The notes beneath the pieces were generated by a model. That model ran no database searches. It was not told where the DNA came from and saw only the letters and a program-made list of their open reading frames with translations. DNA of 62,698 bases, the filler included, from Piptocephalis cylindrospora (taxonomy: Eukaryota): NCBI GenBank assembly GCA_003614145.1. It is 4 parts of 4 records of this genome, joined end to end, with 100 filler letters (N's around TTAATTAATTAA, not from the genome) between each part and the next. Parts side by side here need not be neighbours in the genome. Positions count along the whole stretch, not along the records: positions 15,720 to 31,337 come from KZ987890.1; 3 more parts are not named here. The stretch is one strand, 5' to 3'. The position numbers and the translations under genes were made by a program. Shown piece by piece: positions 11,229 to 51,527 of this stretch (position 1 is its first letter; each line of letters opens with the position of its first letter).

Positions 11229-14012
<2,784 letters not shown>

Positions 14013-14196
14013 TTAACTTTGAGAGAGGTAAGTTGGAGAGGGGCACAGGGGTGCGTTGGAGGAAAAGGAAGAGGAAAGAGAAGTTTGAGTCCTTGTGTTG
14101 TGGTGTGTGTGCAATTCTATAGTGATAAGGGGGCAAAGGATGACGGTGTGGGCCAGCGGCCTACAGCAACCGCCAAATCTTGGCTGTTGAAATAAT

Positions 14197-15119
14197 GGGA
14201 TAATATCAGAAATGCCCTTATTCTCTGTGGTATTTCAGAAATGCCACAATTCACGGATAACATCAGAAATGCCCCCCTCGTTTATGCCTGATGATACCAA
14301 GAATGCCCCTCTGTTACTTCAATTGTCGGGTGTGCTCCCCTCCCCACAGCGCCACCGCCTTACACTTTGCCTAAGGGGCGCAGCGGTATTTCTCACCTGC
14401 CCCTCCGCCTCTCATCTCAGGAGGGTAGAGAGAAATAAGAAGAGGGGCATCCTAGAAAAGGCGCGCTCTACAACTATCATCATATTTATCTCAAAGTGTA
14501 CGTTGGAGATACCAATATGACCGCTGGATAGGAATGATTTCTCGTCCTAGACAGTATGAGACACAAGTAGGGCGCACCATGCTTGCCTTCTATCCTTTGC
14601 CTCACTCCCATCCATGGCCCACCATTCTGCTCATATGCATGCTAATGCCAGCGGCAAGGCTTTAATAGTATCATTTTAATATAGTATAATATATGTTGAA
14701 TACTTGTCATTGCCACGCATCATTATCCCCATTAAAGAGCTGTATTTAACGGCCTTGTTGCCACCGTGTTGGATGCCCCTCTGCCTATCCCACTGAGGAA
14801 AATAAAGTGATTTCATCATCATCATCACCATCGTCATAAAAACATTATCTTAAAACGTTATATCTGTCCTGTCATTCTTAGTAGCAATAATGAAATGGTG
14901 TACTTGATAAAATAAGTCATAGTCGGTGGAGGCAAGGGTAAAGTATCAGTATGATAGGGCGAGAAGAGGGGGAAGGGAAAGTAGATCCGACAATTGTAGC
15001 AACAGAGGGGCACTCTTGGTATCATCAGGCATAAACGAGGGGGGCATTTCTGATGTTATCCGTGAATTGTGGCATTTCTGAAATACCACAGAGAATAAGG
15101 GCATTTCTGATATCATCTC
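14197..15119. mobile_element. Non-autonomous TIR element (MITE, Mutator-like ends), ~920 bp
   Basis: 14197-~14329 is the near-perfect reverse complement of ~14987-15119. Each arm has three tcagaaatgcc subrepeats. No coding capacity and no clear TSD. Confidence 0.85.
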
Positions 15120-15619
15120 AAAGATATATCAACACAGTCTGAAATCCCTATTTCCTCTCTGAATAGCACCAAAGGAAGATCCGAGTGATTAGGTACGAGG
15201 CGTGAAAGATAAGGTATTTACCCGAATCTAGGAAAAGGTTTACGAAGTTCATGAAAGCGTTGCTAGTATCATAATGTAGAGTGGGATGTAAACATAGACA
15301 TGTTAATCTAGCTGAGCAGGTAAGAGAGGACTAGCGGGGGAGTGGCTAGGCTAGGAAGCTCAACAGAAAGATGATAAGCTCAAGAGAAGGAAAGGGCGGA
15401 AAAGAGCACGAAACGTGATGGCCTTTCCCTTAGGAAGCTCTGCTCTAGGTACCCTGTAGCGCATTATCTTGCTCCATACCCTCACGCAGATCTATTCTCT
15501 TCCGGACTTGCTGAGCGAGCCGATTGGTTCAGCCTCTCGAAACAATTTTATTCTTGAAATTCTCCCCCCCCCCCCTTCTTCTGGTGGGCATTCATTGGAT
15601 CCACCCTCTCATCGACTCT

Positions 15620-15719
15620 NNNNNNNNNNNNNNNNNNNNNNNNNNNNNNNNNNNNNNNNNNNNTTAATTAATTAANNNNNNNNNNNNNNNNNNNNNNNNN
15701 NNNNNNNNNNNNNNNNNNN
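15620..15719. other. Artificial scaffold linker N44-TTAATTAATTAA-N44
   Basis: Six-frame-stop 12-mer in the centre of an N run. Identical linkers at 31338-31437 and 47019-47118. Confidence 0.97.
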
Positions 15720-17600: not shown

Positions 17601-18279
17601 AAGTCGTTCCCATTTACACCCTTCTACCACGTTGCTTTAACCCTGGAGATATAACCCTGGAGATATAGGTTATAGTAGTGGACGAGGCACTTTCGCGGGA
17701 AAACAGGCTTGGGGCCCCCTAACTTGGGCTAGTCATCTACATCGTGCCATCAGCTCTAAAATGTACATAATTTGGGACGCCCAGGATATGAAAGAACACG
17801 TCATTACTGAACGTACTGTTTACCACATTATAGCTCATGGGCGGTGGCCTTGTGTAATTGGGACAATGTCAAGGGGAGAGAACAAGGATATATAAAAAGA
17901 CACGTTGTTGCGGAACAAGTCATGTGCTTTATAACCGTTTCCAAACTTGAAATCATGCCCACTGGTGCAGATAACATAAACATTACAACCCCCATTCTCT
18001 TTTAATTATTCATAAGGATGTGTTTAGCCCTGAGATATGAAACTTCATCGGAGTATCTAGAAGAAGTACAGAACTTAGCATTATAGACCATCATGATGCA
18101 TGACGCCTTCATGGGTGATATCTCCATGGGCTTTTCTGGCGAGTCCATGATTTTCTTAGTCAGCTTTTCAGAAGCTTCCATCTCTCTCTTACCACCCCAA
18201 TGACCGCCATCCGTAAATGCTTCCATAAGCTGTAACGCGAGAAAGGCCAAAGTGGTTTGACCTCTGAGCCGGACACATA

Positions 18280-19723
18280 CAGCGTTTGTGAAAATAAACC
18301 GATATTTATACCGCCATGGACCCTTTTCTTCGTCATTCTTCTTCTGGGAAATCATTCTTCATGAAATAAAGTACACTGGAAACGTGAGAACCACACGATC
18401 AGGGATAGCTGAAGTACTTTTAAATGGAAAAATAAATCGTTTCAGGAATTAAAACTTTGTAAAACAAATTGTGTCGGCACTGTAGTGAAACAGGATCAGC
18501 TTGAAATACACTTTTCTTAATCTCATTATAAAAACTAACATATTAGGAATCAAGCTATAAGAACATCAGTATAAGAACCAGAGCTCTTCATTATCCCCTA
18601 CACCACGATCTCCTTCAGCTCGCTCAACCATGAAAGCCATACCAAAAGAAACAACTATGCGCATCAAGATGTTCCTGGAGAAGGGCCAATCAGTGCGCCA
18701 AGTGGCCATCAAGGCCAAAGTAGGATCATCTACGGTAATGAGGAGGCGTAAGGAGCTGGGTATCGTGGGAAAACCTAACCCAGGTGGCCGCCCAAGGCTT
18801 CTAACCCCAAGAGAAGAACGGATGGCCGTCCGAAATGTAACTACAACACGCGGGGGATCAGCCAGGAGGGTCGCAATGCAGGTTTCCGCCGATCGTGGGG
18901 AACGCTTCAGTGCTGAGATAGTGCTTTGTACCCTTAAAAGGAGAGGATTGAGAGGCAGGAGACCTGGAGATGCCATCCATGACGGAAATGTAGTATCTAT
19001 AATTAAGTTTGGAGGAGGTAATGTGCTGATTTAGGGCTGTATTCCTGTTTATGGGGTTGGTAGACTCCATAGGGTTGGCGGGAAAATGGATGCGGACGTA
19101 TACTGTGATGCATTGGAAGAAAGCTATCTATCATCCCTGGATGACTGGGGCCTTGGTGAAGAGGATATCATCTTTCAGCAGGATAATGATCTAAAAATAC
19201 CTTTACTAAGGCCCGGAGCTGGCTTTCCTCAAATAGGATCCAAGTCCTGGAATGGCCTTCTCAGTCTCCAGACTTGAATCTTATTGAGCGCCTTTGGGGA
19301 CACCTAAAGAGAAGCCATTAGCCACCTACAAGAGGGCCCCCGCTAGTATCAATGCTCTTTGGATTCGGGTGAAGTCAGAATGGGATGGGATCCCTCAAGA
19401 TGTAGTCCTGAATCTCATCGACAGCATGCCTTCAAGAATTCAGGCCGTCCCAAAGGCAAAGGGTGGACGTACTGGGTATTGATGGTTGGCAATGGAATTT
19501 GCAAAATCTTGCATCGAAAGTGTGCCGGTGTAGTCTATATCGTAATTTCTTGCTTTCTGCAGTGGGTTATTGAGTAATTTAACATTGCTTTACTTACTCT
19601 TGATTGCATGATTCATGCACATCTAGTGTACTTTATTTCATGAAGAATGATTTCCCAGAAGAAGAATGACGAAGAAAAGGGTCCATGATGGTGTAAATAC
19701 TGGTGTACTTTCACGATACACTG
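18280..19723 (+). mobile_element. Tc1/mariner (IS630-Tc1) DNA transposon, 1444 bp
   Basis: ~100-bp TIRs (18280-18378 vs 19625-19723) starting CAGCG/CAGTG. TA at 18278-79 and 19724-25. Transposase relic inside. Confidence 0.93.
18630..19482 (+). pseudogene. Tc1-type transposase pseudogene
   Basis: HTH region SVRQVA..GGRPRLLTPREER, then KFGGGNVLI*GC, IFQQDND and WPSQSPDLNLIERLWGHLK. Internal deletion of the first catalytic D region, a stop and frameshifts. Confidence 0.9.
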
Positions 19724-19919
19724 TATCATGACTGTTTGAAAAATCATAGATATCCCAACGGAAATGACTAGGGAAGATGATGGATGGCTATGTCCGGCTC
19801 AGTCTTAACCGTGGGCTGCATTGTATAATAAAAAGTTGTGTATGAGAAGATATGTCCCAAAGATCATGGTAAAGGGGAGGGTCATTCTCACTAGTAGCAC
19901 GCAAGCTGCTCATTCATTT

Positions 19920-22480
19920 TTAATCATCTCCACCGGAGGATAGATTACATTGGTCTCTCAAATCAATGAATAGCTCCCCCGAGAGCGCCTTTGCAAACAT
20001 ACCCCTGATGGAACACCGGACCATACAATCGATCCTCCGAAAAAGTAACCAAAGTTCCTTGTCAAACTTAGAGGCGGCATCCTTTACAAGACGCCTCTGA
20101 TGCCTCTGCATAAGGTCTACAAGGGAAATATAAGCAGGTAGATATTTCACTTGAGACCACACACCAGGCTTTACGTAATGGGACCGCAGCTGACCAGGGC
20201 GTGGGAAAAGGTATCGGAAAAGCTTCCACCAAGAGCTGATTTTCCTTCTGCTTGATACATGCCTTTCTTGACGATGGCCAATGGCTTGACGGACCTGTTC
20301 CAGATTCCACTCAGTGATGATCCTAGTATCCGCGAAATCCTTCGCAGCATTGATCAGATCTTGCCGAAGAAGTTTGATGATCAGGCCGGCGATCACTTCA
20401 GGGGTCAGTAGCACACTACGTTCCACTTCTTTGTCATAATCGCCGCCCATCAGGTCCCGCATCTCCTGCTCACCGATTAAACTGTTCAGAGTTTCTTCCC
20501 TTCCTGCCTCATCACCACTCGAACTATCCCTACCCACCACACTTTCCTCTTCTTCACCGACCACATCATCCCTATCTAGTCTCCCTTCCTCCTCTTCTTG
20601 AATAACCGAACGACAAGGCAATGCCCACACAGAGAGCCAGATGACCTTGTCATGGGTAGTGTAGATCCAGCCAAAAGTCTCAATGGATTTCCCGAGGTTA
20701 AGAGACCTGGAATCCGTGCGATTCGGGTTTCCATACACATACCTTCGATCATAGGAAAAATACTTTCCTCGATAAAACCCCCGAAATAGAGAGGCGAGCA
20801 GTCGCATAAAGGATTCAGTACTGGGATCCGGGGGAAGGCCTTTCCTCTCGAGAGCCCGATCGACCCGCTCTGCTCCATCCCTTACGATCCATAGGCAGGA
20901 AGCCTGGAACCGGGCAGCAGTCAAGGATGGCAGAGCAATAAAATACTCTTGATGGTTTGCCTTCACGGCTTCACACTCATTCATGAATTCCTCCAACCCA
21001 TCTACTCGAAGGAAACGGTCCCCTGTAATCCTTTGCTCGTATCGGGACCCCCACGACATCATGCGACCGTCCTCTAACCCACCGATTAAAACCTTCCATG
21101 CGTCTTTCATCTTCATGTTGGACCACTTCATATCGTGCCATTGCAATCTGCTCATCCAATGATCTCTCGCCCCAGAGATAAGCTCCTTGTCAACTTGATA
21201 GACTTGCGCATACGCAGGATCGGGATGCTCCTTTCCTACCTCAACCACGTCCCGCCCACCTGGGCCAACAGTCATCCCAGTTACGTCCTTTGTCAACCAC
21301 CACTCGGCCAACTTTGGCTTTAGGTTCATGCCGGTCTTCATCTTCAGACACCCTTCTCTTTTCCATAAAAGGTGAATGGGACCATGGGCGGCAATGGCGA
21401 CTTCCGAAGGCATAAATTCAACTGCAATGTCCACTTGCATTCCCTTCATCCCCTCATCTCCAAAGGCGCCGGCGTACCGCCTCATCACTGTGTCCTTCCA
21501 CGATCGTAGACCCTCGGGATTGAGGAGTTCACGGTACGGCACCACTGTACCGCCTTTGACGCCCTTACACGCGGCATGGAAGAAGAAGCCGTTGAAGTGG
21601 GACTGGAGATGATCATCTTGATTGACGATGGATCTCATCTCCCTAGTAACACCGTTGACTTCGAGAGGTTGAAGAATATGACCGATCATCCCCTTCTTGT
21701 CATAGTCCCTGGCGTTCCGTGCGGTTGGCCTCAAGTGCTGAAGTCGGTTGGGGCCAAGGAAGCGGCGACATGCTGGAAGAACTACAGACTCATACCACAA
21801 ATCGAGGAGAGGTGTTGGTAGGTAATCCTGACCAGGGGGTAGGTACTTGGGGGAGAGGGAAGGGAAAATGGCATGGATAGTGATTGTGCCTCTTGTTTTC
21901 CCAAACAAGCAGTGAGGAGTTCTGCTCATTGGAACTCTCCCCGCCTGGTCAACCTTTGGGACAAATTGATGATTCCCCACAATATTCGACCCTTGATGAG
22001 GATTTGGAAAAATGTGAATGGGATCTTGGGCCGGAATGTAATCGAGATTCCACAGGACAGAATCAACGTCAATGAAGGCATCCAGCTCGGGAACTTGAGG
22101 TAATTCGTGTGATTTGATCTCTAGTCTCCGCGGCACATGGCTATATCCTACCCGGTGACCATAAATTACCCTTTCGATGTCCAGACAACTAATCGGACAA
22201 GCGACCCCTTCTTTAAATGAGAAAGACTTCAGAAAGTCCTCGAGGAATTCAACCTCTTCACTTCCTTCCTCTCCCTTTTGCAGTACAGGAGGTGCACTAA
22301 ATTGTGTCAACAAAGGCTTTTGAGTACCACTACCATATACCCTAGTAGCTACTTTTATCCATAAGAAACCTAGCCCACTTACTGTAAGGGAGGAGGCACT
22401 ATCTCTGCTATTGTGGAGTAGATGGCTTGGTCTCTGGTGAGAGAGCTCACAGCACTACAGTACTTTCTTTCTGGAGGCAT
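19920..22480 (-). CDS. Intact ~824-aa orphan protein, probably mobile-element-derived, with Rep_trans-like motif order
   Basis: 797-codon open frame. Predicted phase-2 intron 22297-22382 (gtaagt...ttgac..tttag) joins in frame to an ATG at 22480 behind a CT-rich leader. Function not established. Confidence 0.75.
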
Positions 22481-23957
22481 ATGGTGATAATGATGGTATG
22501 AGCAATGTATCAACACCCGCTTCTGCAGGAGATGATCAATTTGAGGACGAAAAGGGGGAGAAGGGAGCAATAAAGAATTGAAGGGGGGGGGGATGGTGAA
22601 GCAATGAGGATGTAGTGAATGTCACGCTTTGCCAAAATAATGAAAGGAGAGAGTGTGAGTGGGGAAGTGAAAACAATAAATAAGGAAAGGAAGTAGTGAG
22701 AAGGGGAGAGGGGAAGAGGACGAGGGGGGGGGGGGGTGATGAGGTGGTCTGAGCAGATAGGGGTATGCGTTTTGCACGGTGACGTTCGCGTGATAGAGCG
22801 CGCCTTCTCCGCCATGTCCACAGACGATGGTGGAGGGTGGCAAAGTTTAGACCCGTTTCTGAGCGGAATGCGCACCACGGATGTGGCTCTTCCGACATAC
22901 AAAGGATGCAGCAGGGTGAGGGAGTAGCATGTGGCTTTATAAGTGCGGAGAGTACGTGCGACGCGACACGGCCCTTCTATTGTTTTCCTTGAATGCGTCG
23001 GCTGATGATATTATGATATTGTTAGGTGTCTGGCTGACTATCAGGGAAGGGTCAGTAGTAAAGTGGTTCGAAAGTGGCTTGGTCAAATGTATTGATGGAC
23101 ATTCAAAGTCCAGCCCTTTATAGGGAGCCATCCAGGAGGGTTATTCCTTATATTTAGGACTATCTTGAAATAATCCTGTGCGGCTAGATCTTTCACTTTA
23201 TCTGTCCATGAAGCTTGTTTCCTCATTTCTGCTCCTGATTTTTGTCTCTGGGGGGTTTCACATAGGCATCCCGCTCATACGGCTCACGCAATGACTTCCA
23301 AACTATTACAATGTATATTCCAGATAGTCTACTGGTACCAATAACATGCAGAAGCATAACAGTAGCTATTTCTCTGATCTTAGTTACGCCTTCCTGGCGA
23401 TCCACTTTCGCTGCTCTTGGAGGAAGCACTATCATCCGATACGCCCAGGGAAAAATAAGGGATGATGCAGGGTAATATGTGAGGCCTTGCCTATCAGTTT
23501 CCATGTTGATCACTTGATTTAATATTTGAAGTTTCCAGAACCATCATCATTTTAAAAAGCCACGCATTACACTAATAATACTGGAGATACAGTACATTAT
23601 AGCAAACGGACTTATGAGGGTTCCAACCACCATGACTACCATCCAACCGATGATCCATCCGCTGTATATATTCCGTTTCTCTTTCACTGTGAAATGCCAA
23701 GAATGAATCCCTTTGAGGGACAATGCACTAAAACAATGGGATCATTGATAATCCTTATCGTAGCGCAACCGCGAAAATAAGCCAGAACGATACATCATGT
23801 ATTCTCTTAGTGGGTTATTCCCGTAATGGGTTAACTCAATCGCTACATGCAAACAGGTACGAGGATGTGTAGTGAAACACCACGAGAACAGAAGATCCAG
23901 CATGATGACGTCCCGAAATATTCATCAAGTGATGGATAATCAATGGTAAAGCGAGGC

Positions 23958-26900
23958 TTAGGGGCGTTCCTTGGACGTGCGCTTGCCAAACATTCTCCGA
24001 AGCTTGTTACGAATCTTAGCCGCCCACTTTACTTTAGCCGGTTTGACCTATTAAATTAAGGGACGATGAGAAGTGAGAGATCAGCAGCCAGGAGACAATT
24101 GAACCTCCATCGCACTCCTTGTATACATTGGGGTCATTGAGGCTAGAGCTCTTCATGACGCCATGAAGAACAAAAAGTAATTGGATAGGTCCAGAGAGAA
24201 TGTGGAATACGACCAAAGTGAAGCGGGCGGGACATATAGAGAAGGATGAGTAAAAGTTTCGTATAAAAATTGCGCAAATGTTCAATGATGATCGATGAAA
24301 CAGGATCTGTGTGGTGAGCAATTCTCCATCGTTAACTTACCGGTGAGAGTACTGGCTTCACCTCTTCCAGCCTGAAGTGCGTCTTAGCTAATGAACTTTG
24401 AGCTTTCCTTATCTGCCCCTATGTGAGAAGGTTTCGTGGGCGAAGTTATCGTTAAGCAAGGAGATATTGGTGAGCTTGACATGAGAGGAAATGGGGCAAG
24501 AAACCCTCCTTTTATCCGAGATAAAAGGCCACATCCCTACTCAAAGCCTCTGCAGTGGGGGATGATTGGATAGCCTATCTCAATGTTCTCACTAATCGAC
24601 AATCGATAGCACCATCCAATTTGCCACCCAGTCACCATGTGCTTAGGAGAAGCTCAAATTTCAAAACTAACCTGTTGATGGATAGTTGACTTAGCCCGAG
24701 CATCTTGCTCACGCGCCTTCTGCGCCCTGGCCATTTGCTAAATGTAGTGTAACAATAAGGGTTAGTCTAAGATACTCCCTACCTCAAGAAATATATCCTT
24801 CATAGCTACTAATTCATACCGCAAGTAGGTCGTCACCAAAGCCATCATCATCATCATCATCCTATATACAAAAGGTTAGTAGACATTACCAAGGCAGAAG
24901 AGTGGCAATTTAGAGGGATTTAGCCCCTCAAGAGACATAGAAGGACTTTAAATGAAGAGGAAAATACGTACAAAGCCATTCTTCTTCCTTGTATTCTACC
25001 AGATTGGGAAAGAGTAGGTTGTTGTGTGTGAGAAGGAGAGTAAAATATCTAGTTAATTTCTCAGCCCCTTCTTCCACTCGACTTATGCGTCAATCCTCGT
25101 ATAGGCACAGAAAGATTTACCTGTCCAAGCTCGTTACCAGTACTAAACTTATCGTTGGTCTGTATGAAAATGGTAAAGGAATTGGATCAAGGTTAATTAA
25201 CCCATGCTCATGGGGTATCTCCGAGACTGAAGAATAATCATCTCCTTTGAAAAGACCCCGTGCCCCTACGCTTCACCTACCGAATGTGGTTCCTCGACTA
25301 GAGTTTTCGACATTCTCCTCTTGGGGAACTCCTGAACCTAATAAAGATTCCCGAAAGATGAGCAATTGTACACAGCCTTTAATAAAGGAAGCGCCAACAT
25401 GGGTCCATGATGCCAGGTCTGCGTGGTGAGTAACTCTCTATCATTAACTTACCGGTGAGCGTACTGGCTTCACCTTTTCCAGCATGATGCGCGTCCCAGC
25501 TAATGAACTTTGAGCTTTCCTTATCTGCCCCTATGTGAGAAGGTTTCGTGGGCGAAGTTATCGTTAAGCAAGGAGATATTGGTGAGCTTGACATGAGAGG
25601 AAATGGGGCAAGAAACCCTCCTTTTATCCGAGATAAAAGGCCACATCCCTACTCAAAGCCTCTGCAGTGGGGGATGATTGGATAGCCTATCTCAATGTTC
25701 TCACTAATCGACAATCGATAGCACCATCCAATTTGCCACCCAGTCACCATGTGCTTAGGAGAAGCTCAAATTTCAAAACTAACCTGTTGATGGGTGGTTG
25801 ACCTATCCTGAGTATCTTGCTTACGCGCCTCCTGCGCCCTGGCCATTTGCTAAATGTAGCATAACAATAAGGGTTAGTGTAAGATACTCCATTCCTTTCC
25901 CTATCTCAAGAAATATATCCTTCATAGCTACTAATTCATACCGAAAGTAGATCATTATCATCATCATCATCCTATACAAAAGAGATTGGTGGAAATGGCC
26001 AAGACAGAAAGTGGTGGGTTGGAGTTGTTTAGCGCCTCAAGAGGCATATAAGTACTTTAAATGAAGAGGAAAATACGTACAAAGTCATCCTTCCTTCTCG
26101 TATTCTATCAAGTTGGGAGAGTAGGCCATTGTTATGTGAGAAATATGATAAAATATTTAGCTGATCCCTCTACTGTACGTACCGAAGAGTCCCCTGAAGA
26201 GCCTGTAGAGCTTTCCGAGTTGGGACTTGTACCCTGCCTTCCTGTAGTAGACAAGGGGTTTCCTGCTTCCCTGACAGCCTACGGGAGAAAGAAAAAAAAT
26301 GATTGATGAGAGACTCCAGGAGCAACGACGAAGGGTATGGCGTATCATGTAGCATTGCAATAAAGGGAAAGTGGCATATGCACATATTGCTTATAGCTCG
26401 TACGGCTGCCTTGCATGCTTTCCCTTTCCAACATTTCTCTTACCTCAGGTGTTCCGTATTTTTTCTGGCTCTTGATAAGGGAATTCTCGATGTCATTTAC
26501 CCACTAGAATGAGTAGTAATAAAGAGGGATAGATCAATAGTATTGCGATTAGATTTGATTACTTGCCATCTAGAAGTCATAGAAATAAGCCAAAAGACAA
26601 GGTACCGTCTGTATCTCTGGGTCCTTGTTGAGGGTTCGCAGGCGTCCAAGATCCTCGACGAGCGCAGAATATCTCTATAGTTACCGTAGTGTTGATTTAA
26701 GTGATGATAGCTTCTTCTATGCGCAATTTTTTTCTGTGGGCTTGGAATACTTACCCATTGTAAAAAATCGGCACGCTCCTCAAGCTATCCAGGGGAGCGT
26801 GGCATTGATGGGGTAAGTGTGGTTAACATGAAGGATAAAAAAGAGCGCAATGCTCTCATACAACACTTACGTAGTTGATCTTATCCTGTAAGGAAATGAT

Positions 26901-29717
26901 AACGATATTTGCGTCGCATGGGGTTAATTGGTTAGAGTGTCAGGAATATTTATAGCCACTCTCATTAACAAGCTGCACGGACCAGACCTCCCCAGAGGCA
27001 TCGCACTGAAGTATCCCTCAATATTTACCGGTAAATTGTCAACTTCTCTTTCTAACTCCTTTGATTCCTGGAATGAAACCGGAAAGTAGATAGGGGAAAC
27101 GATGAGATTTGTCACAGAAGAGGATAAAGCATTTCGCGCATTGTCATCAGGGTGTAGCTCTGATTAAGACGAAGGGTGGACTTACATATTTAATACGATC
27201 CATTTCGATGGCTCTCTTTTCAGGGATTCTCAGCTATAGCGCGAGTGAATTGAGGGCGTTAGCCTATGGGTAAAGTTTCTTCTGGCCCATGATAGGAGAT
27301 AGCTCGGCTATTGTTTGAGGTAGTCATCATGCTGTGGGAGTTAGATGGCCTTTGAGAAAATGACCATCTTTTCCATGCCCGCTTGACCTGATTTACATCG
27401 CAGATAGGATAATTGTCTATAAAGCATCTTACTTCATCGTCAGTGGGTCTTGTAGGCCATTCCTTCGGTAGTGGTTTCTTTGTACGAATAATAGCCTATA
27501 GTTTGTGCAGTGGAAGAAATGAAAATGCTATTATTAAATTGAACGCAGGGGAGGCAGAAGCTATTTCTACACTGTCCTAGTGGCGATCCTGCCTCTCACA
27601 AAATCCGCATAGGGTCCATTTCCAAATTAACACAATTCCCTTAACGTTATTGGGGCTATATCATTACTTACGGTATAGAAGGTGAGCTTCCAGATGATAT
27701 CAGATGCCTTGAGCTTCAGTGGTGAAATATCCTACAATAATAAAATGACAAAGATCATTAACGGGACAATTCCAGTGGTACTGGTACGACTGAGACATCA
27801 CGGAGTATTCATGCGAACATCCTAGATAGCTAATTATTTCAATTTGGCATTTACCTCATCGGGCAATTTTTGCCTAATAGCCTTTGCGAGGAACCTAACA
27901 CCTTCAAATGCTTGCTAAGGGGGCATGGGTGAGAAATTTTAGAGGTTTTGAAGGATTGAAGGATGATTAGTTATCCAACCAGTCGGAAAATCCGGGAAGC
28001 GCAGATATTCAATCTGTAAGATGCGCCAAGCGTATCTATCCATACTCAGAATTGGGAAATGACTTACATAACTGGCCCTTCTAATACTTCCTTCTGAGCG
28101 GACCTAAGATATTTTTTGGAGATATCAAGGGTATTAATGAAGGCACCCTTGGAAGAAGACAGTGAAAATACAAATAGTGATGTCTAAGAATTGTGAGGGG
28201 GCTGACATGCGCTCTTACATTAGTATTGGACCGTTCATCCTTCTGGATAAGCGTAATTCCCACAGAGAAGCATATGAAGGTCAAATGGTGAATAGTAAAT
28301 GCCGTTGGGTTGGGTTAGATCGAGGGAAGGAGATGGATATAATGAGATCAAGAGCCTAAGATTACTGATAGATAATGTACTTCCCCTCCGCCTTACCACA
28401 AGCCTGTTGAACCAGGATTCGCCAATCTCGACAGTCTATTTTTTAACGAGAAGTGACAAAATTTGATAAGTAATTGCTTTTGATCATAACGCCTTGAGTT
28501 GGGTATTCACTAGGTAAGCTATCTTCGATGTAACTTACCTGCTTGGCGTCCTGTTTTAGAAGGTGCTAAATAATGGTTCAAAAGATGAAAGAGTATTAAT
28601 TGGAGTAGTCTACTTCCCCATTCCATCCAATGAAATTACCCTATTGCGAGCAACAAAGTCAGGATCGGTTGCCTTTTCAGATTTCTGAATATTATTAGGG
28701 GCGGTACGAACGATCACCTTGTAAGAGAATGACCAAATTTCATCGATAAAAGCGTTCCAAAAAGGATACGACATAGGAGGGTTCCGAGGGAGTTAAAGTA
28801 GGTTAGGTAGGCAGAATTAACTGTAATTTATCCTGAAAACTAGGCTCATAAAGCTCCTCATCCAAAAGGCATCCTTACCCTATCGGGCTGTTTTGGAGTC
28901 ATTTTGTAGTTCGGCGTGGTGGCCGGTACGTAATCGGCGTCTATAAATGCGGATGCACGGTTAATAAGTACTATTGATGTAACCTCTATGTAATAATTGA
29001 AGAAAGTGGCAAGAGAAATGCATACTTTTTTTGACCGTCTAATCGAAAGAGGATGCAGATGAAGGAGGATGATTAGGGATCCGATTGGGATGATAGTAAT
29101 GGGATTGTACACGTTATTAAACAAAAGGTCCATCCGGCTGATTAGTACTACGATAATTGCAAATTTTTACGCTCTGAAGAGATATGGATCCTTACATTCA
29201 TTCCTGGAATGGCGGTCCGGGGATACATCAGCAGAGAAAGGGAGGGTGATCGAAGATGAGTCATGTTGTTATTATTATTAGGGGATGAGATAAGCATGAG
29301 CAAAAGAAAGTGTTATGGTTGGGCGCGGGAATCCACTCATGAAGGCCATGCCATTGATGTCTCCCTATGAGCATTGCACTTTTAAAACAGCACTGCTTGC
29401 AAAACTAACGCATTCGGTTCACAGAGATTACGCAAAGCTACATCATCGGATTGCTTTTCACTTACTTAAAGGGAGAGTGGGCGTAGACGCGCCTATATTC
29501 ACGGGATGGTTAGCGGCTAAATCAACGAGTGAGTGATGGAGAGGACGATATACATAGATCAGTAGATTAGAGCCAGCATTGAGAAGCTTGTGGTTTAGGT
29601 GTAGCAAGAAATGACATGATGAGATGACTTACTGGTACGCGTAGAGCCTGGAGCAACCACATGTTGAGGAAGGAAGGTGAGGCAGGCAACGCTAAGAATA
29701 ACGATGATGAGTCTCAT
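23958..29717 (-). CDS. 31-exon micro-exon gene encoding a ~518-aa secreted orphan protein
   Basis: Manual GT-AG model with an open frame throughout. Exons: 29633-29717, 29466-29516, 29196-29203, 29026-29038, 28879-28940, 28640-28717, 28539-28565, 28397-28435, 28219-28242, 28068-28103, 27855-27914, 27672-27731, 27433-27495, 27186-27233, 27029-27067, 26871-26885, 26755-26784, 26606-26674, 26444-26503, 26183-26278, 26081-26104, 25942-25971, 25784-25849, 25453-25530, 25281-25337, 25121-25159, 24972-24995, 24820-24861, 24672-24737, 24341-24418, 23958-24047. Signal-peptide-like start MRLIIVILSVACLTFLPQHVVA. Confidence 0.8.
24332..26165. repeat. Direct duplication of a ~720-bp four-exon module (24332-~25055 vs 25444-~26165)
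   Basis: Offset is 1112 bp. Core 24386-24681 is identical to 25498-25793 and the flanks are diverged. Confidence 0.95.
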
Positions 29718-29945
29718 GTTGATTGGCGAAGAAAGCAACAAAGGGTTTGAAGAGAGCAGTAGGACAGAGGAAGAGGCAGGAGAGAGAGAAAGGAGTTGAA
29801 GAAGGGTCTCACACAGTGAGAATCTGAGGGTGGATGGATGGGAAGATGTGAATGATTGCGCCAGGCAATGAACCACTTTAACGAGGTAGATGGAAGGATG
29901 GGGTCGCACAAGGGGGGGAGAGAGAGGAGGGAAGAGAGGGATAGA

Positions 29946-30029
29946 GAGAAGGAAGAGGAGGAAGGAGAGAAGGAAGAGGAGGAAGGAGAGAAGGAAGAGG
30001 GAGAGGGGGAGAAGGAAGAGAGGGGGGAG
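29946..30029. repeat. 21-bp purine tandem repeat x4 (gagaaggaagaggaggaagga) upstream of the micro-exon gene
   Basis: Units at 29946, 29967, 29988 and 30009, progressively degenerate. Confidence 0.85.
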
Positions 30030-30339
30030 AGTGGGTGAGAAGAAAATACCATTTATGGGAAAGTTGCCGTGTCGGTGACCCTGTTTTAGAGGGGGATCCT
30101 CAGTATTGCAGCTGATGGGATTTCTATCTGTCTCCTACAGCTTAAGCGGAGGGTCTGGATATTCACTTGGTCCACTGGCGACCATCAACAAAATAACACC
30201 CAATTAAACGCAGCACATTAACTGACGGAGACGAAATGGCAATTGCCGCCAAATTTACTCTCTATGGTATTCCCATCACTAAATCAACTCTGCCATGTAG
30301 CTCCGCTCAAATAACGGCCGTGTATTCGCCATGACACTT

Positions 30340-31337: not shown

Positions 31338-31437
31338 NNNNNNNNNNNNNNNNNNNNNNNNNNNNNNNNNNNNNNNNNNNNTTAATTAATTAANNNNNNN
31401 NNNNNNNNNNNNNNNNNNNNNNNNNNNNNNNNNNNNN
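31338..31437. other. Artificial scaffold linker
   Basis: N44-TTAATTAATTAA-N44. Confidence 0.97.
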
Positions 31438-42305: not shown

Positions 42306-42479
42306 ATGGCTTTCACTGCTTCAGACATCCTCAAGATTGTTGCCGCCGTCCTTCTCCCTCCCCTCGGAGTCCTCTTGGAACGAGGATGTGGGGCGGACCT
42401 GTGCATCAATATCCTCTTGACCATTCTGGGTTATATCCCTGGAATCATTCATGCTCTTTATATCATCTTGAAGTATTAA
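42306..42479 (+). CDS. PMP3: Pmp3 plasma-membrane proteolipid, copy 1 (57 aa)
   Basis: MAFTASDILKIVAAVLLPPLGVLLERGCGADLCINILLTILGYIPGIIHALYIILKY*. Below the ORF-track cutoff. Confidence 0.95.
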   Translation: MAFTASDILKIVAAVLLPPLGVLLERGCGADLCINILLTILGYIPGIIHALYIILKY

Positions 42480-43516: not shown

Positions 43517-43690
43517 ATGGCATTCACTGCTTCCGATATCTGCAAGATCATCTGCGCCGTCATTCTCCCCCCCATCGGTGTACTCATGGAGCGGGGATGC
43601 GGAGCAGACCTGTGCATCAACATCCTCTTGACCATTCTGGGTTATATCCCCGGGATCATCCATGCTCTGTACATTATTTTAAAGTACTGA
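43517..43690 (+). CDS. PMP3: Pmp3 plasma-membrane proteolipid, copy 2 (57 aa)
   Basis: MAFTASDICKIICAVILPPIGVLMERGCGADLCINILLTILGYIPGIIHALYIILKY*. Confidence 0.95.
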   Translation: MAFTASDICKIICAVILPPIGVLMERGCGADLCINILLTILGYIPGIIHALYIILKY

Positions 43691-49012: not shown

Positions 49013-51272
49013 GGCGTTTCCCAATCAAGGCAGAATGGAGTGGGAATGTAAGGGTCAGATGGGAGAGTAGGGAAGAGGAGGAGGAAAGTACGGCTTGCCG
49101 TTTGTTTGGCGCGTCCGCTAAGCGGTTGTTTCATATGAAGAGACGGGCTTTTGTATTGAGGCTTTTAGCATTCGCTGCTAAATCTCAAAGGCAGGTGGCC
49201 GTGGTATTTTCTCTCACACTCACACATTTCATCACGCCCAATGCGTCCTCGGATGGAATTGAACCACCACTACTGTACACACTTGGTATGTTCAGCTCTC
49301 ATTAGACGCTATTATTAAGGGTGCCGATTTATTGCTCGAGGATCATACAAGACCTTATATCCTTCTTCGAAAGACGGTATGGGGTTATCCTAATAGTAAA
49401 TGAGGGTAGGCCCGAGGCTGAATGAATGTCACCAAGATCGCTTCAGATCTCGATCTTGCTGGGCCAGATATTCCTTGGATTATATACTATTTTTCCGAGA
49501 ATGGCCATCAAAGAAAGGGGCATATCATCTTTTTATCATGATTAAAGTACCAATTTCCTAGTGGCCAGGTGTCATGTGTAAGGGTGATAGTCATAATGTG
49601 TATAAGAAATTCCAGAGAAAAATGGTAAGAGATGGGTTGTGTATTGGCCTATTAAGGGTGGATGGATGAAAGAATTTGTCAATGAGAAAGACTTACGTAC
49701 TTTTAAATGACGATAAAGCCATTTTATTTTTCCCAGTGGGGTAGGCAGATGGGCATTCGAACACAATATCTGCTAAGATAGCTGACATGTGCTTTTTGAA
49801 ATAAGCAATAATCTTCCTGGATGTTTCTTCTATAAATAAGGATATCCAAAATATACTATCCCAAAAAAATCTAAAAGCTAAGCCATTGAGCATCAAAAAT
49901 ATATTCTTCATTCATTCCTCACCTGTATTTAAATCTTAACAATATAAAATGTTCGAGGTACAAGAGATAGATAAGATCCTGATGATCATGAAAAGCTGAA
50001 AGCTATCGTTGGAGTCCAATTTCACTGGAGGAGATTTTGAGGTAAAGTGAACAAATGGCATTTCACAGGTAATGCATATAGTCAACGGCTAATTATCAGT
50101 ATTTATTTGAGCAGCATATTAGAGTAACTGCAAATGATGGCGATGATGGAATCATTGCATTTCAATGGATTTGCGTCCATGTGGATAAACGAGACGACAA
50201 TTAGGCGCGGTGCATCTGGTACAACGAAAGACGGAGATAACAATCCTAATGGCAGAAACTAGAGCCAAAGTGGAGCATCTCTCCCAGAGACAGGTAAGGG
50301 AGGAGAAAAGGAAAAGGGTAAGCCCAAGATAAAATGGGCCTCCTTTATCTTGCCATTTGAAGCGCGGTCTCTAGCTGACATCCTTCATGCCTTACTCTTT
50401 CCTTAATTAATCATGCTTCTCAACATACCTCACACTCACTGCCTGCTCAAAGAGTATTTATTTATAATGAACGTAAACCTGTGATCAACCATCTCGATCT
50501 GTTTCTTTATAAGCTCTCCGCTTTCTCATCCAAGAGAGGTGCAAATATCTTGCTAAATTTATCATTTCCCACACAATCAGCCCTTACTTTAGGTAACATG
50601 TGCATTATTACTTCCATGGAAAGGCAGGGTGGAAGATATCCCAAGAGCAGGAACAGGGAAATGGAAATGGAGTAGAATTACGCATTCAGGATGAATACAT
50701 CCCCGATGCTAAGACCCGGAGGCAAGATAAAGAACCAGTAAACGAATAGAAGGGTCATATGCTTTCCAGTCACAGCTGGGATATTTGAGTGTGAGAAGCC
50801 CCAGGGAAGATGAGTTGTACTCCGCTGAAAATGTCTTTGTGGAGGTTCTAAATAGGGAAAACGAAGAATCATGAAACATCATTGCGGAGTCCCTTGAGTT
50901 GGAGAAGGAGTATGTAGTAGAGATTGAATCAGCTTCCTACTCGTCCTCCTCTGATTGACCATCTAGGAATTCTCTCTCCATCTTCTCTTCTCCCTGGGTG
51001 CAAGAACAGGATGGCCTTACTAGCCATCTCTCGCCCAACTCTGTCCTTCAGCAGTGCATTCCCCTAGATCAACCATGTCTCCTACTCCCCCATCGCGATA
51101 AACTTAAATAGGGGTCAGATCAAGGCCCCTTCCCTTCCATCATATTCTGCTCATCCTCCAAATTACCCATTCCTACTCTCCTTCTACCGTCTTCCCCTCT
51201 TCAAAGAGCTTTGGTCTCTTCTCTATCTCTCTACTTTTCTTGTCAAGCGACATCCCCCACCACTTCTTCACC

Positions 51273-51527
51273 ATGAAGCTCACATCCATCCTATTCATCT
51301 CCGCCATGCTGGCCATGGCTCTTACTGTTGCTGCTTCTCCTGCTGGGGAGGGAGGTAATAAGAAGGGTATGAAAGGAAAAAATAAATCGGCTGATCCCAT
51401 GCCAAGGGGAGATCAAACTTGCAACTTCGGTTGTCATGCTGGTTATGGGTGCGCACCCAATAATACCTGCGTTGGTATAGAGTGGTATAACGCGTGGGCA
51501 GCGAGGAATGGCCAGTCCTTCATCTAA
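51273..51527 (+). CDS. Small secreted Cys-rich protein (84 aa)
   Basis: MKLTSILFISAMLAMALTVAASP signal peptide, Lys-rich spacer, then C-x3-C-x5-C-x5-C. CT-rich leader and acc-ATG context. Confidence 0.8.
   Translation: MKLTSILFISAMLAMALTVAASPAGEGGNKKGMKGKNKSADPMPRGDQTCNFGCHAGYGCAPNNTCVGIEWYNAWAARNGQSFI

Follow-up and report, generated by a model that had tools for sequence, protein, structure and literature searches.

Does a 5.8-kb region of the Piptocephalis cylindrospora genome that looks free of open reading frames carry a gene, and are its short exons built for alternative splicing? The region lies on the minus strand of the window, by which we mean the whole stretch of 62,698 nucleotides analyzed (assembly GCA_003614145.1; the part concerned comes from KZ987890.1). 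P. cylindrospora is a zoopagalean fungus and is termed a 'biotrophic mycoparasite' (PMC6784888), in line with the fungal, possibly parasitic system envisaged in a preliminary description of the locus. The 31-exon gene is real. With moderate confidence we favor the view that it is one intact gene with a likely secreted product, that its same-phase introns stem from the copying of exon units, that splicing is mostly fixed and that the protein acts at the host interface.

Exon-intron layout of the gene

Rebuilding from coordinates gave a single open frame over 31 exons on the minus strand, running from 29717 to 23958:

29633..29717 (-): exon 1, 85 nt, with the ATG, a signal peptide predicted at about 22 residues and a phase-1 donor, GTAAGT
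29466-29492 or 29466-29516, 29196-29203, 29026-29038, 28879-28940 (-): exons 2-5, phases 1,0,1,0
28640-28717, 28539-28565, 28397-28435, 28219-28242 (-): exons 6-9, phase 0-0; 78, 27, 39, 24 nt
28068-28103, 27855-27914, 27672-27731, 27433-27495 (-): exons 10-13, phase 0-0; 36, 60, 60, 63 nt
27186-27233, 27029-27067, 26871-26885 (-): exons 14-16, within 26444..27233; 48, 39, 15 nt
26755-26784, 26606-26674, 26444-26503 (-): exons 17-19, within 26444..27233; 30, 69, 60 nt
26183..26278 (-): exon 20, 96 nt, Ser/Gly/Thr-rich linker
25403..26170 (-): copy A of a duplicated block with its introns; exons 21-24 at 26081-26104, 25942-25971, 25784-25849, 25453-25530; 24, 30, 66, 78 nt
25281-25337, 25121-25159 (-): exons 25 and 26, within 25121..25337, between both copies; 57, 39 nt
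24301..25052 (-): copy B; exons 27-30 at 24972-24995, 24820-24861, 24672-24737, 24341-24418; 24, 42, 66, 78 nt
23958..24047 (-): exon 31, strongly basic tail and stop

Exons 6-30 are 25 consecutive symmetric exons, each phase 0-0, and the 26 consecutive introns 5-30 are all in phase 0; lengths and phases came out exactly as first described. The frame is indeed uninterrupted. It measures 1533 nt (510 aa) with the 27-nt exon 2, and the 1557 nt given originally are obtained with an alternative in-frame acceptor 24 nt upstream, which yields a 51-nt exon 2. On a matrix trained on neighboring genes the acceptor of the longer version scores 7.1 and that of the shorter version 3.6; the latter has a CTAAC branch motif. 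Exons 2-5 (28879..29516) and their join to exon 6, whose acceptor is weak (AAG, score 0.1), are the least certain part of the model and have no independent support.

Introns are 74-293 nt long (median 122, compared to a median of 105 in neighboring genes). The neighbors, represented by eight crude, unverified gene models, have a median internal exon of 196 nt versus 42 nt here, and phase 0 in 27/53 introns versus 26/26 in the run (Fisher p 2e-6), which bears out the longer exons and mixed phases noted for them earlier. An excess of TAG acceptors (21/26 vs 33/53 in neighbors) was not significant (p 0.13). Internal exons of at most 81 nt carry 82% of the coding sequence, and the smallest symmetric one has 15 nt. 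Because 8 of the 29 internal exons are ≤27 nt and 16 are ≤51 nt, the majority are small exons and not strict micro-exons. 

Frame-blind reconstruction of the exon chain

The splice sites had been chosen by hand, and a selection bias had been conceded as possible. The exon chain survives selection without regard to frame. A hand-made frame-blind exon rule, written after the sequence had been seen, returned 21/24 exons divisible by three (19 being model exons), compared to 91/285 in five control sets. A second chain maximized splice scores only, with scores trained on 43 neighbor introns; here 20/24 exons were divisible by three (18 being model exons; binomial p 7e-7), against 113/343 in 20 control windows and 11/21 on the plus strand of the locus. 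The chain score was 128 at the locus and 100 in the best control. A crude gene finder given no prior on intron phase produced a 25-exon chain with phase 0 in 21/24 introns and predicted no second gene of such layout in the window. The three-base periodicity of housekeeping genes is present in exons 6-30 (chi-square p 1e-11, versus p 0.13 for introns); their three frames hold 0, 13 and 43 stops.

The public gene model

The locus had been called hidden. Most exons are, however, already in the public annotation, as RKP14075.1 (hypothetical protein BJ684DRAFT_15583), which carries no remark on function or architecture. This model reproduces exons 6-8 and 10-31, 25 in all, without a single differing letter. 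It omits exon 9 (28219-28242) in frame and starts at an ATG at 28774, in intron 5; exons 1-5, and hence the signal peptide, are missing. The public annotation appears to miss the protein start. The omission of exon 9 could reflect a skipped isoform. RKP14075.1 presumably derives from the project of PMC6784888 and is probably an ab initio prediction, because the words 'transcriptome' and 'RNA-seq' are absent from the main text of that paper; the missing exon therefore need not be an isoform.

The predicted product and exon skipping

The product of about 510 residues starts with a predicted signal peptide (mean hydropathy 3.05, residues 3-16), as originally proposed. In a hydropathy scan no later segment exceeded 0.85 after the N-terminus. 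Judged by the hydropathy of its N-terminus, the protein is likely secreted. The sole cysteine (residue 12) lies in the signal peptide and the mature chain is cysteine-free, with 15% Ser+Thr. The exon 31 tail has 12 K/R and 1 D/E in 29 residues. In Kex2-processed repeat proteins a dibasic site bounds every repeat. Dibasic sites are also present in this product, where a pattern listed six and exons 21 and 27 each have RR/RK, but they do not recur evenly along the chain.

Exons 15-18 match a leucine-zipper coiled-coil pattern. In P0123, the stand-in sequence for the 510-residue product in folding and searches, leucine recurs at every seventh residue (161, 168, 175, 182, 189, 196). The six heptads have apolar residues at the offset position and one proline inside, and a helix is predicted. 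The four exons encode 13, 5, 10 and 23 residues, none a heptad multiple, yet the register is unbroken. By a simple heptad score devised for the present analysis, the intact order reaches 0.77, a value attained by 0/300 shuffles and 12/720 exon orders, while leaving out exons 15-17 singly or together (7 combinations) lowers it to 0.33-0.55. Single-sequence AlphaFold2 placed one helix over exons 14-18, followed by a second helix (exons 14-19 region; block pLDDT 70-86), at low overall confidence (mean pLDDT 54 and 67, pTM 0.26 and 0.33). The C-terminal half is predicted to be disordered.

The preliminary description held that any subset of exons can be skipped. Skipping exon 15, 16 or 17 degrades the heptad in every case, which argues against this claim as a source of variants, and no isoform was seen. 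A narrower version resembles schistosome micro-exon genes (MEGs): symmetry would be kept for combinatorial skipping, which would supply a repertoire of secreted variants while the fungus is in contact with its host, with exons 6-13 and 20-30 as the most plausible cassettes and the core of exons 15-18 fixed. The phase contrast to the neighbors, the disordered C-terminal half, the mini-exons of Tuber NACHT-ANK genes as a fungal precedent and the in-frame alternative sites (the two exon-2 acceptors and a donor 3 nt into exon 19) are consistent with it. Median splice scores also lie slightly under those of the neighbors, which were scored on their own training set (donor 5.4 vs 6.1, acceptor 5.0 vs 6.6). 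The absence of exon 9 from RKP14075.1 points the same way, but loses weight if that model is ab initio. High exon-skipping rates are described as a predominantly animal feature associated with long introns (PMC6142364), and the introns here are short (median 122 nt). Together with the unbroken heptad this makes MEG-type splicing rather unlikely in our judgment. Under the favored reading, splicing would be mostly constitutive, with one fixed exon order.

A duplicated four-exon block and the origin of the phase-0 run

Copies A and B are 88% identical over 763 columns. Exons 21-24 and 27-30 correspond, the introns were copied too, junctions are kept and a 12-nt indel is in frame. The four-exon block is thus a recent in-frame duplication, an instance of the exon duplication without frameshift that had been proposed. 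Within the duplicated exons pN is 0.129 and pS 0.082, values from just 17 and 3 changes and from a comparison between copies, not orthologues. Exon bases differ at 15 of 144 positions and intron bases at 4 of 335 (Fisher p 1e-5). This contrast rests on one 296-nt identical run; a faster evolution of exons than introns was set aside as an explanation, because gene conversion or short-read repeat collapse would also give such identity. Between the copies, about 20% of positions differ in introns 20/26 and 21/27 and at the beginning of 24/30. Intron 23 showed no unusual fold (z -0.34).

We propose that the gene would have grown by in-frame copying of exon-plus-intron units, with the 26 same-phase introns as the record of this process. 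The older exons would share this origin but no longer resemble each other, a course also argued for aphid bicycle genes (PMC9168663). With phase 0-0 at every internal exon of the run, introns could serve as sites of unequal crossing-over or conversion that gains, loses or exchanges modules in frame, and variation would therefore build up between strains and generations more than between transcripts. From N- to C-terminus, the product would comprise the signal peptide, a stretch of mixed character, a coiled-coil core resembling a leucine zipper, two acidic-patch-plus-helix repeats and the basic tail. The core would self-associate or pair with a coiled coil of the host; the tail could serve as a nuclear signal or attach to membranes or nucleic acid.

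Outside the duplicated block, no clear kinship emerged among 435 intron pairs and 325 exon-peptide pairs (best scores: an unrelated intron at z 7.2, a peptide at z 4.0). Exons 6-19 are not repeats of one another, and their origin by duplication is hypothetical. This lack of kinship, and the continuous register across helix exons of 13, 5, 10 and 23 residues, would also follow if an existing coding sequence had gained introns strongly biased towards phase 0, through insertion preference or selection against frameshifting mis-splices; the one tandem duplication would have come later and the exons would never have been modules. A burst of introner elements is expected to leave introns that resemble each other. 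The introns are unlike one another, the junction flanks are varied with no common proto-splice site, and introns in the neighboring genes are neither dense nor of uniform phase. Intron gain is accordingly improbable as the main source of the run, and copying of exon units remains our preferred explanation.

The 5' end

Three contig sets of one sample, guessed to be RNA, were mapped to 23500-29860, and no splice joints were found in them. Two features at the 5' end were covered by contigs of runs X1 and X2:

29718..29821 (-): probable 5' UTR, pyrimidine-rich; X1 and X2 contigs, depth about 600-2300
29614..29632 (-): start of intron 1, unspliced read-through of 13 nt (X1) and 19 nt (X2), contig depth about 1200

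The records reading into intron 1 are each 154 nt long, with 30 and 24 letters unplaced. No contig cover lies below 28825, a lack that carries no weight either way. The contig pieces at the locus explain the whole word share (0.083 vs 0.08 and 0.044 vs 0.04); cover of exons 5-31 would add 0.107.

Such read-through, together with the start of RKP14075.1 at 28774, would suit a separate or truncated 5' unit: the main RNA would be ~200 nt long and end in intron 1, exons 6-31 would rarely be joined to the signal exon, and the long protein would be stage-restricted or not secreted. The X1/X2 contigs are, however, RNA by guess and cannot fix transcript start, end or strand. Canonical GT-AG introns of ordinary length link exons 1-5 to exon 6 without breaking the frame. 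Donor 1 has a normal score (5.2), and the contig ends have no usable donor close by (0.1). The short RNA would end before any stop codon, and Rfam gave no match to E 1 within 23500-30200. We regard a separate 5' unit as distinctly improbable. That the whole gene is spurious, a result of choosing splice sites by hand in non-coding DNA, as the lack of RNA junctions and homologues might suggest, is scarcely credible given the frame-blind tests, codon periodicity, RKP14075.1, heptad continuity and a duplicate that diverged while preserving frame.

Relatives and comparable systems

The neighboring gene CEF1 (877 aa) showed 0 mismatches. The locus adjoins transposon remains.

An exon-20 query had one match in 1.84 billion representatives, RKP14075.1 itself, a singleton cluster; no other relative of the gene was present there. 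Pfam gave no family at cut-off and no NACHT or ankyrin match up to E 1; a PDB sequence search gave no match under E 0.18, and Foldseek with the P0123 model none at E 0.001 or better. VIA-align reached a best Z of 7.6, generic helices only, with 0/48161 chains at Z of at least 8. In metagenome scans, 597 pattern matches to the exon-1 frame and 582 to the upstream neighbor yielded 0 confirmed cases each, and a homologue search with the exon-1 frame returned 1 candidate, with none scored. In a literature search mostly confined to papers outside subscription, no paper describing a symmetric-exon run in the gene of a secreted fungal protein was found, and no characterized Piptocephalis effector. 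The preliminary description knew of no fungal case; fungal mini-exon splicing is published for truffle NLRs.

Schistosome MEGs have short symmetric exons of 6-81 nt, mostly 15 nt (PMC10526429), introns of 0.1-5 kb, longest in the center, and proteins of up to 189 aa; alternative splicing is demonstrated, exon duplication recorded, and the genes are described as flatworm-restricted (PMC10526429, PMC4350168). Raised dN/dS is a further MEG trait. The P. cylindrospora gene shares a predicted signal peptide, a parasitic organism, the lack of a known domain and exon duplication, and it resembles MEGs in a coding region largely of short symmetric exons. It differs in exon size (median 42 nt, 8/29 ≤27 nt), intron length (74-293 nt, median 122) and product length (510 aa), belongs to a fungus, has no sequence homology to MEG families and would be spliced mostly in one order. 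The gene is MEG-like in layout and is not a MEG.

Aphid bicycle genes are probably the nearest analogue in how the gene works. They too have many small internal exons nearly all in one phase, encode putative secreted parasite effectors and are too divergent for similarity search; their exons are phase 2, not phase 0, and their proteins have CYC motifs, whereas the mature chain here has no cysteine (PMC9168663). Bicycle genes also form a multigene family expressed at the host interface; for the present gene, no second one of its kind was predicted in the window. The nank (NACHT-ANK) NLR genes of Tuber melanosporum reportedly have tens of frame-preserving mini-exons (Iotti 2012, as cited in PMC3689799, PMC4986451, PMC13449251) and likewise are fungal and set in inter-organism recognition. 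Codon-sized exons, reported alternative splicing and intracellular receptor domains set them apart. SP7-like effectors of arbuscular mycorrhizal fungi consist wholly of tandem repeats, variable in number, with one conserved intron described before the first repeat. They are secreted, as is likely here, and like the present product are modular, repeat-bearing and from early-diverging biotrophic fungi; no symmetric-exon run is described for them in the accessible text (PMC11333574), and no homology was found. IGY proteins come from three-exon genes with rare alternative splicing (PMC4367982), and Coprinopsis micro-exons are scattered and mostly frame-breaking (PMC12230235).

Lifestyle, lineage restriction and sequence features suggest an effector role. 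The gene is a concrete candidate Piptocephalis effector, obscured by a public model without signal peptide. A bolder reading, speculative and unlikely as a whole, would make it the first fungal counterpart of MEGs and bicycle genes. The mycoparasites of the Zoopagales would possess a family of secreted effectors, each with an unchanging leucine-zipper core flanked by phase-0 cassettes that are mixed by skipping and block duplication in a host arms race. Secretome lists would miss such a family because annotation drops the signal exon, and termination in intron 1 would switch expression on or off when no host is in contact. Should this layout prove to recur in parasites among flatworms, aphids and fungi, a shared route to fast effector evolution would be indicated. 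The gene is suited to testing whether symmetry serves splicing or duplication, because a zipper core and disordered cassettes predict different skipping. Its layout, a signal exon followed by a run of small exons in the same phase, offers a sequence-free search route, as used for bicycle genes.

Gene model and public annotation

The gene was rebuilt from the minus strand by listing donor and acceptor sites. It comprises 31 exons (29717 to 23958, minus, numbered 5' to 3') that join into a single open frame, 1533 nt long and coding for 510 aa; the 1557 nt of the preliminary description is obtained if exon 2 uses its upstream in-frame acceptor. Read directly from the rebuilt model, introns 5-30 share phase 0, measure 74-293 nt and are GT-AG throughout, and the lengths of exons 6-30 match those first listed exactly. 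The 31-exon chain and its phase-0 run are confirmed. The locus lies within one contig, with flanking N gaps at 15620-15719 and 31338-31437, and is surrounded by housekeeping genes (Pfam); eIF4B-like and RPS13 genes lie next to it. As had been claimed, these neighbours have longer exons and mixed phases: in eight crude, unverified models the median internal exon is 196 nt vs 42 nt in the gene, and 27 of 53 introns are phase 0.

Alternative sites were seen at these positions:
25653-25661 and 24541-24549, minus: 9-nt phase-0 cassettes with a stop codon at the end, within introns 23 and 29
26501-26503, minus: strong donor (6.1) 3 nt inside exon 19, the gene finder's choice, whose use would yield an in-frame one-codon exon
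27331, minus: second acceptor in intron 13 (matrix score only 1.3) that has a branch-like motif and after which the frame runs for seven codons to a stop; we read it as a decoy or dead exon

Introns 23 and 29 (253 nt) are each readable as 122 + 9 + 122 nt. The cassettes have a strong acceptor (5.6) and a poor donor (2.1), were chosen by the frame-blind chain at the lowest penalty and, if included, would stop translation behind exon 23 or 29.

A query with exon 20 against 1.84 billion representatives returned a single match, RKP14075.1 (P0123, the public model of the gene), which is 456 aa long, is labelled hypothetical and forms a singleton cluster. Exons 6-8 and 10-31, including the 15-nt exon, are present in it letter for letter; exon 9 is left out in frame. 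The model starts at an ATG inside intron 5 and therefore lacks the signal peptide. The gene, described as hidden, is thus present in the public annotation, though apparently with a wrong start and the signal exon missed. RKP14075.1 is independent support for the predicted chain. It presumably derives from the project of PMC6784888 and is probably not RNA support, since 'transcriptome' and 'RNA-seq' are absent from the main text of that paper.

The CEF1 protein of Piptocephalis cylindrospora, found via the second CEF1 exon, matches the window with 0 mismatches over 877 residues; a query with the first exon had given only hits of about 65%. In the public CEF1 model (11229-14012, minus) a second intron, possibly a false one, takes out 17 in-frame codons at a place where the window has an uninterrupted frame. 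P. cylindrospora, an obligate mycoparasite, belongs to the Zoopagales and feeds on Mucorales via haustoria. The fungal parasite proposed at the outset is borne out, PMC6784888 describing a biotrophic mycoparasite whose life cycle could not be completed axenically.

Predicted protein and splicing

The N-terminus is hydrophobic and no hydrophobic segment follows; the mature chain contains neither cysteine nor an N-glycan site. The protein has a pI of about 9.7, 15% Ser+Thr, a mostly negative FoldIndex and a very basic tail, and is probably secreted and may act at the host interface. It is neither repetitive nor a mucin. It had no Pfam family at cut-off and no PDB sequence match. AlphaFold2 single-sequence models of P0123 and its exon 10-19 part were of low confidence overall; in them exons 14-18 form a long helix and exon 19 another one (block pLDDT 70-86); fold searches with the predicted structures returned generic helices only.

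In the predicted exon 14-18 helix Leu recurs at each seventh residue, six times, and the offset position is apolar. This register is directly seen to cross the three junctions that link exons of 13, 5, 10 and 23 residues. On a heptad score devised for this analysis the native order reached 0.77, vs 0.33-0.55 for the seven skip combinations of exons 15-17, and was matched by 0/300 shuffles and 12/720 exon orders. Skipping all three exons kept the register, with most of the zipper gone. The heptad continuity therefore validates these junctions at the protein level and argues that the core is spliced in a fixed order.

Combinatorial skipping, as in schistosome micro-exon genes (MEGs), is unlikely to account for the layout. 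The introns are short, like those of neighbours, and PMC6142364 links frequent skipping to animals and long introns, but loss of the predicted disordered cassettes outside the zipper might do no harm, and the slightly weaker splice sites leave room for skipping. Splicing is probably mostly constitutive. The proposal that any exon subset can be skipped or duplicated in frame survives in part: an in-frame block duplication is present, but the lower heptad score on exon 15-17 skips argues against free skipping. The layout resembles MEGs (PMC10526429, PMC4350168), from which the gene differs in intron length and lineage; it likewise resembles aphid bicycle genes (putative effectors), from which it differs in phase and CYC motifs. 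No fungal secreted gene of such layout was found among the main texts of open-access papers covered.

Duplication and growth of the gene

Exons 21-24 and 27-30 with their introns are copies lying about 1110 nt apart. In this directly observed in-frame duplication the junctions are kept; the sole exon indel is 12 nt, and intron indels are of any length. Apparently greater exon than intron change between the duplicates was set aside as a sign of selection because it depends on one identical 296-nt run. Since clear kinship was confined to this block (435 intron pairs, 325 exon-peptide pairs), the common phase is our only ground for inferring that exons 6-19 arose by duplication, an argument made for bicycle genes in PMC9168663. 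Growth through repeated copying of exon-intron units is our best explanation and somewhat favoured; phase-biased intron gain appears improbable.

The 5' end

A detached or truncated 5' end is rather doubtful. Three contig sets from one sample, whose RNA status is a guess, were placed on the locus and gave no splice joint. In two of them the stretch between 29614 or 29620 and about 29821 is covered at a depth of about 600-2300, as are some intron-containing pieces at depth 2.5-4.3. The deep contigs continue past exon 1 into intron 1, by 13 nt in one set and 19 nt in the other, with 30 and 24 letters unplaced. A poly(A) tail would explain these letters, but contigs cannot show ends; an RNA ending just inside intron 1 would have no stop codon. 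This read-through keeps a truncated transcript in contention, at low probability.

Chance and selection of splice sites

Hand-picked splice sites had been a worry from the start. A frame-blind rule gave 21/24 exons divisible by three vs 91/285 in controls, a result biased by the rule's composition after the sequence had been inspected. Therefore splice matrices were trained on 43 introns from neighbouring genes, and the best chain was built without codon, stop or phase information. Here 20/24 exons were divisible by three, vs 113/343 over 20 control windows, and 18 equalled model exons exactly. Stricter penalties gave 18/22 vs 46/131 and 14/18 vs 18/39; the plus strand of the locus gave 11/21 and 10/17. 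A crude gene finder with no phase prior returned a 25-exon chain with 21/24 phase-0 introns. Three-base periodicity of the exons resembles that of housekeeping genes, and stops are confined to the other two frames. Against this worry stand the frame-blind tests and the codon periodicity, and an artefact is very improbable.

Other features of the window

14185-15134: MITE-like pair of inverted repeats, each about 166 nt long (90%) and spaced about 950 nt
18277-19726: 105-nt inverted repeats (90%) around a fragment at 18561-19034 that weakly matches a Tc1-like transposase (E 0.014, below cut-off)
19920-22454, minus: 844-codon intronless ORF just downstream of the gene, with no Pfam family
42309-42479 and 43517-43690, plus: tandem pair of near-identical hydrophobic 56-residue proteins
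about 51270-51527, plus: end of a single-exon ORF whose small product has a signal-peptide-like start, four cysteines and no Pfam family

Atlas look-alikes of the 844-codon ORF (0.91) bear CxC4/CxC5 domains; this recognition is weak and below threshold, and hints at a KDZ-type transposon protein. The tandem 56-residue proteins resemble Pmp3/RCI2 proteolipids.
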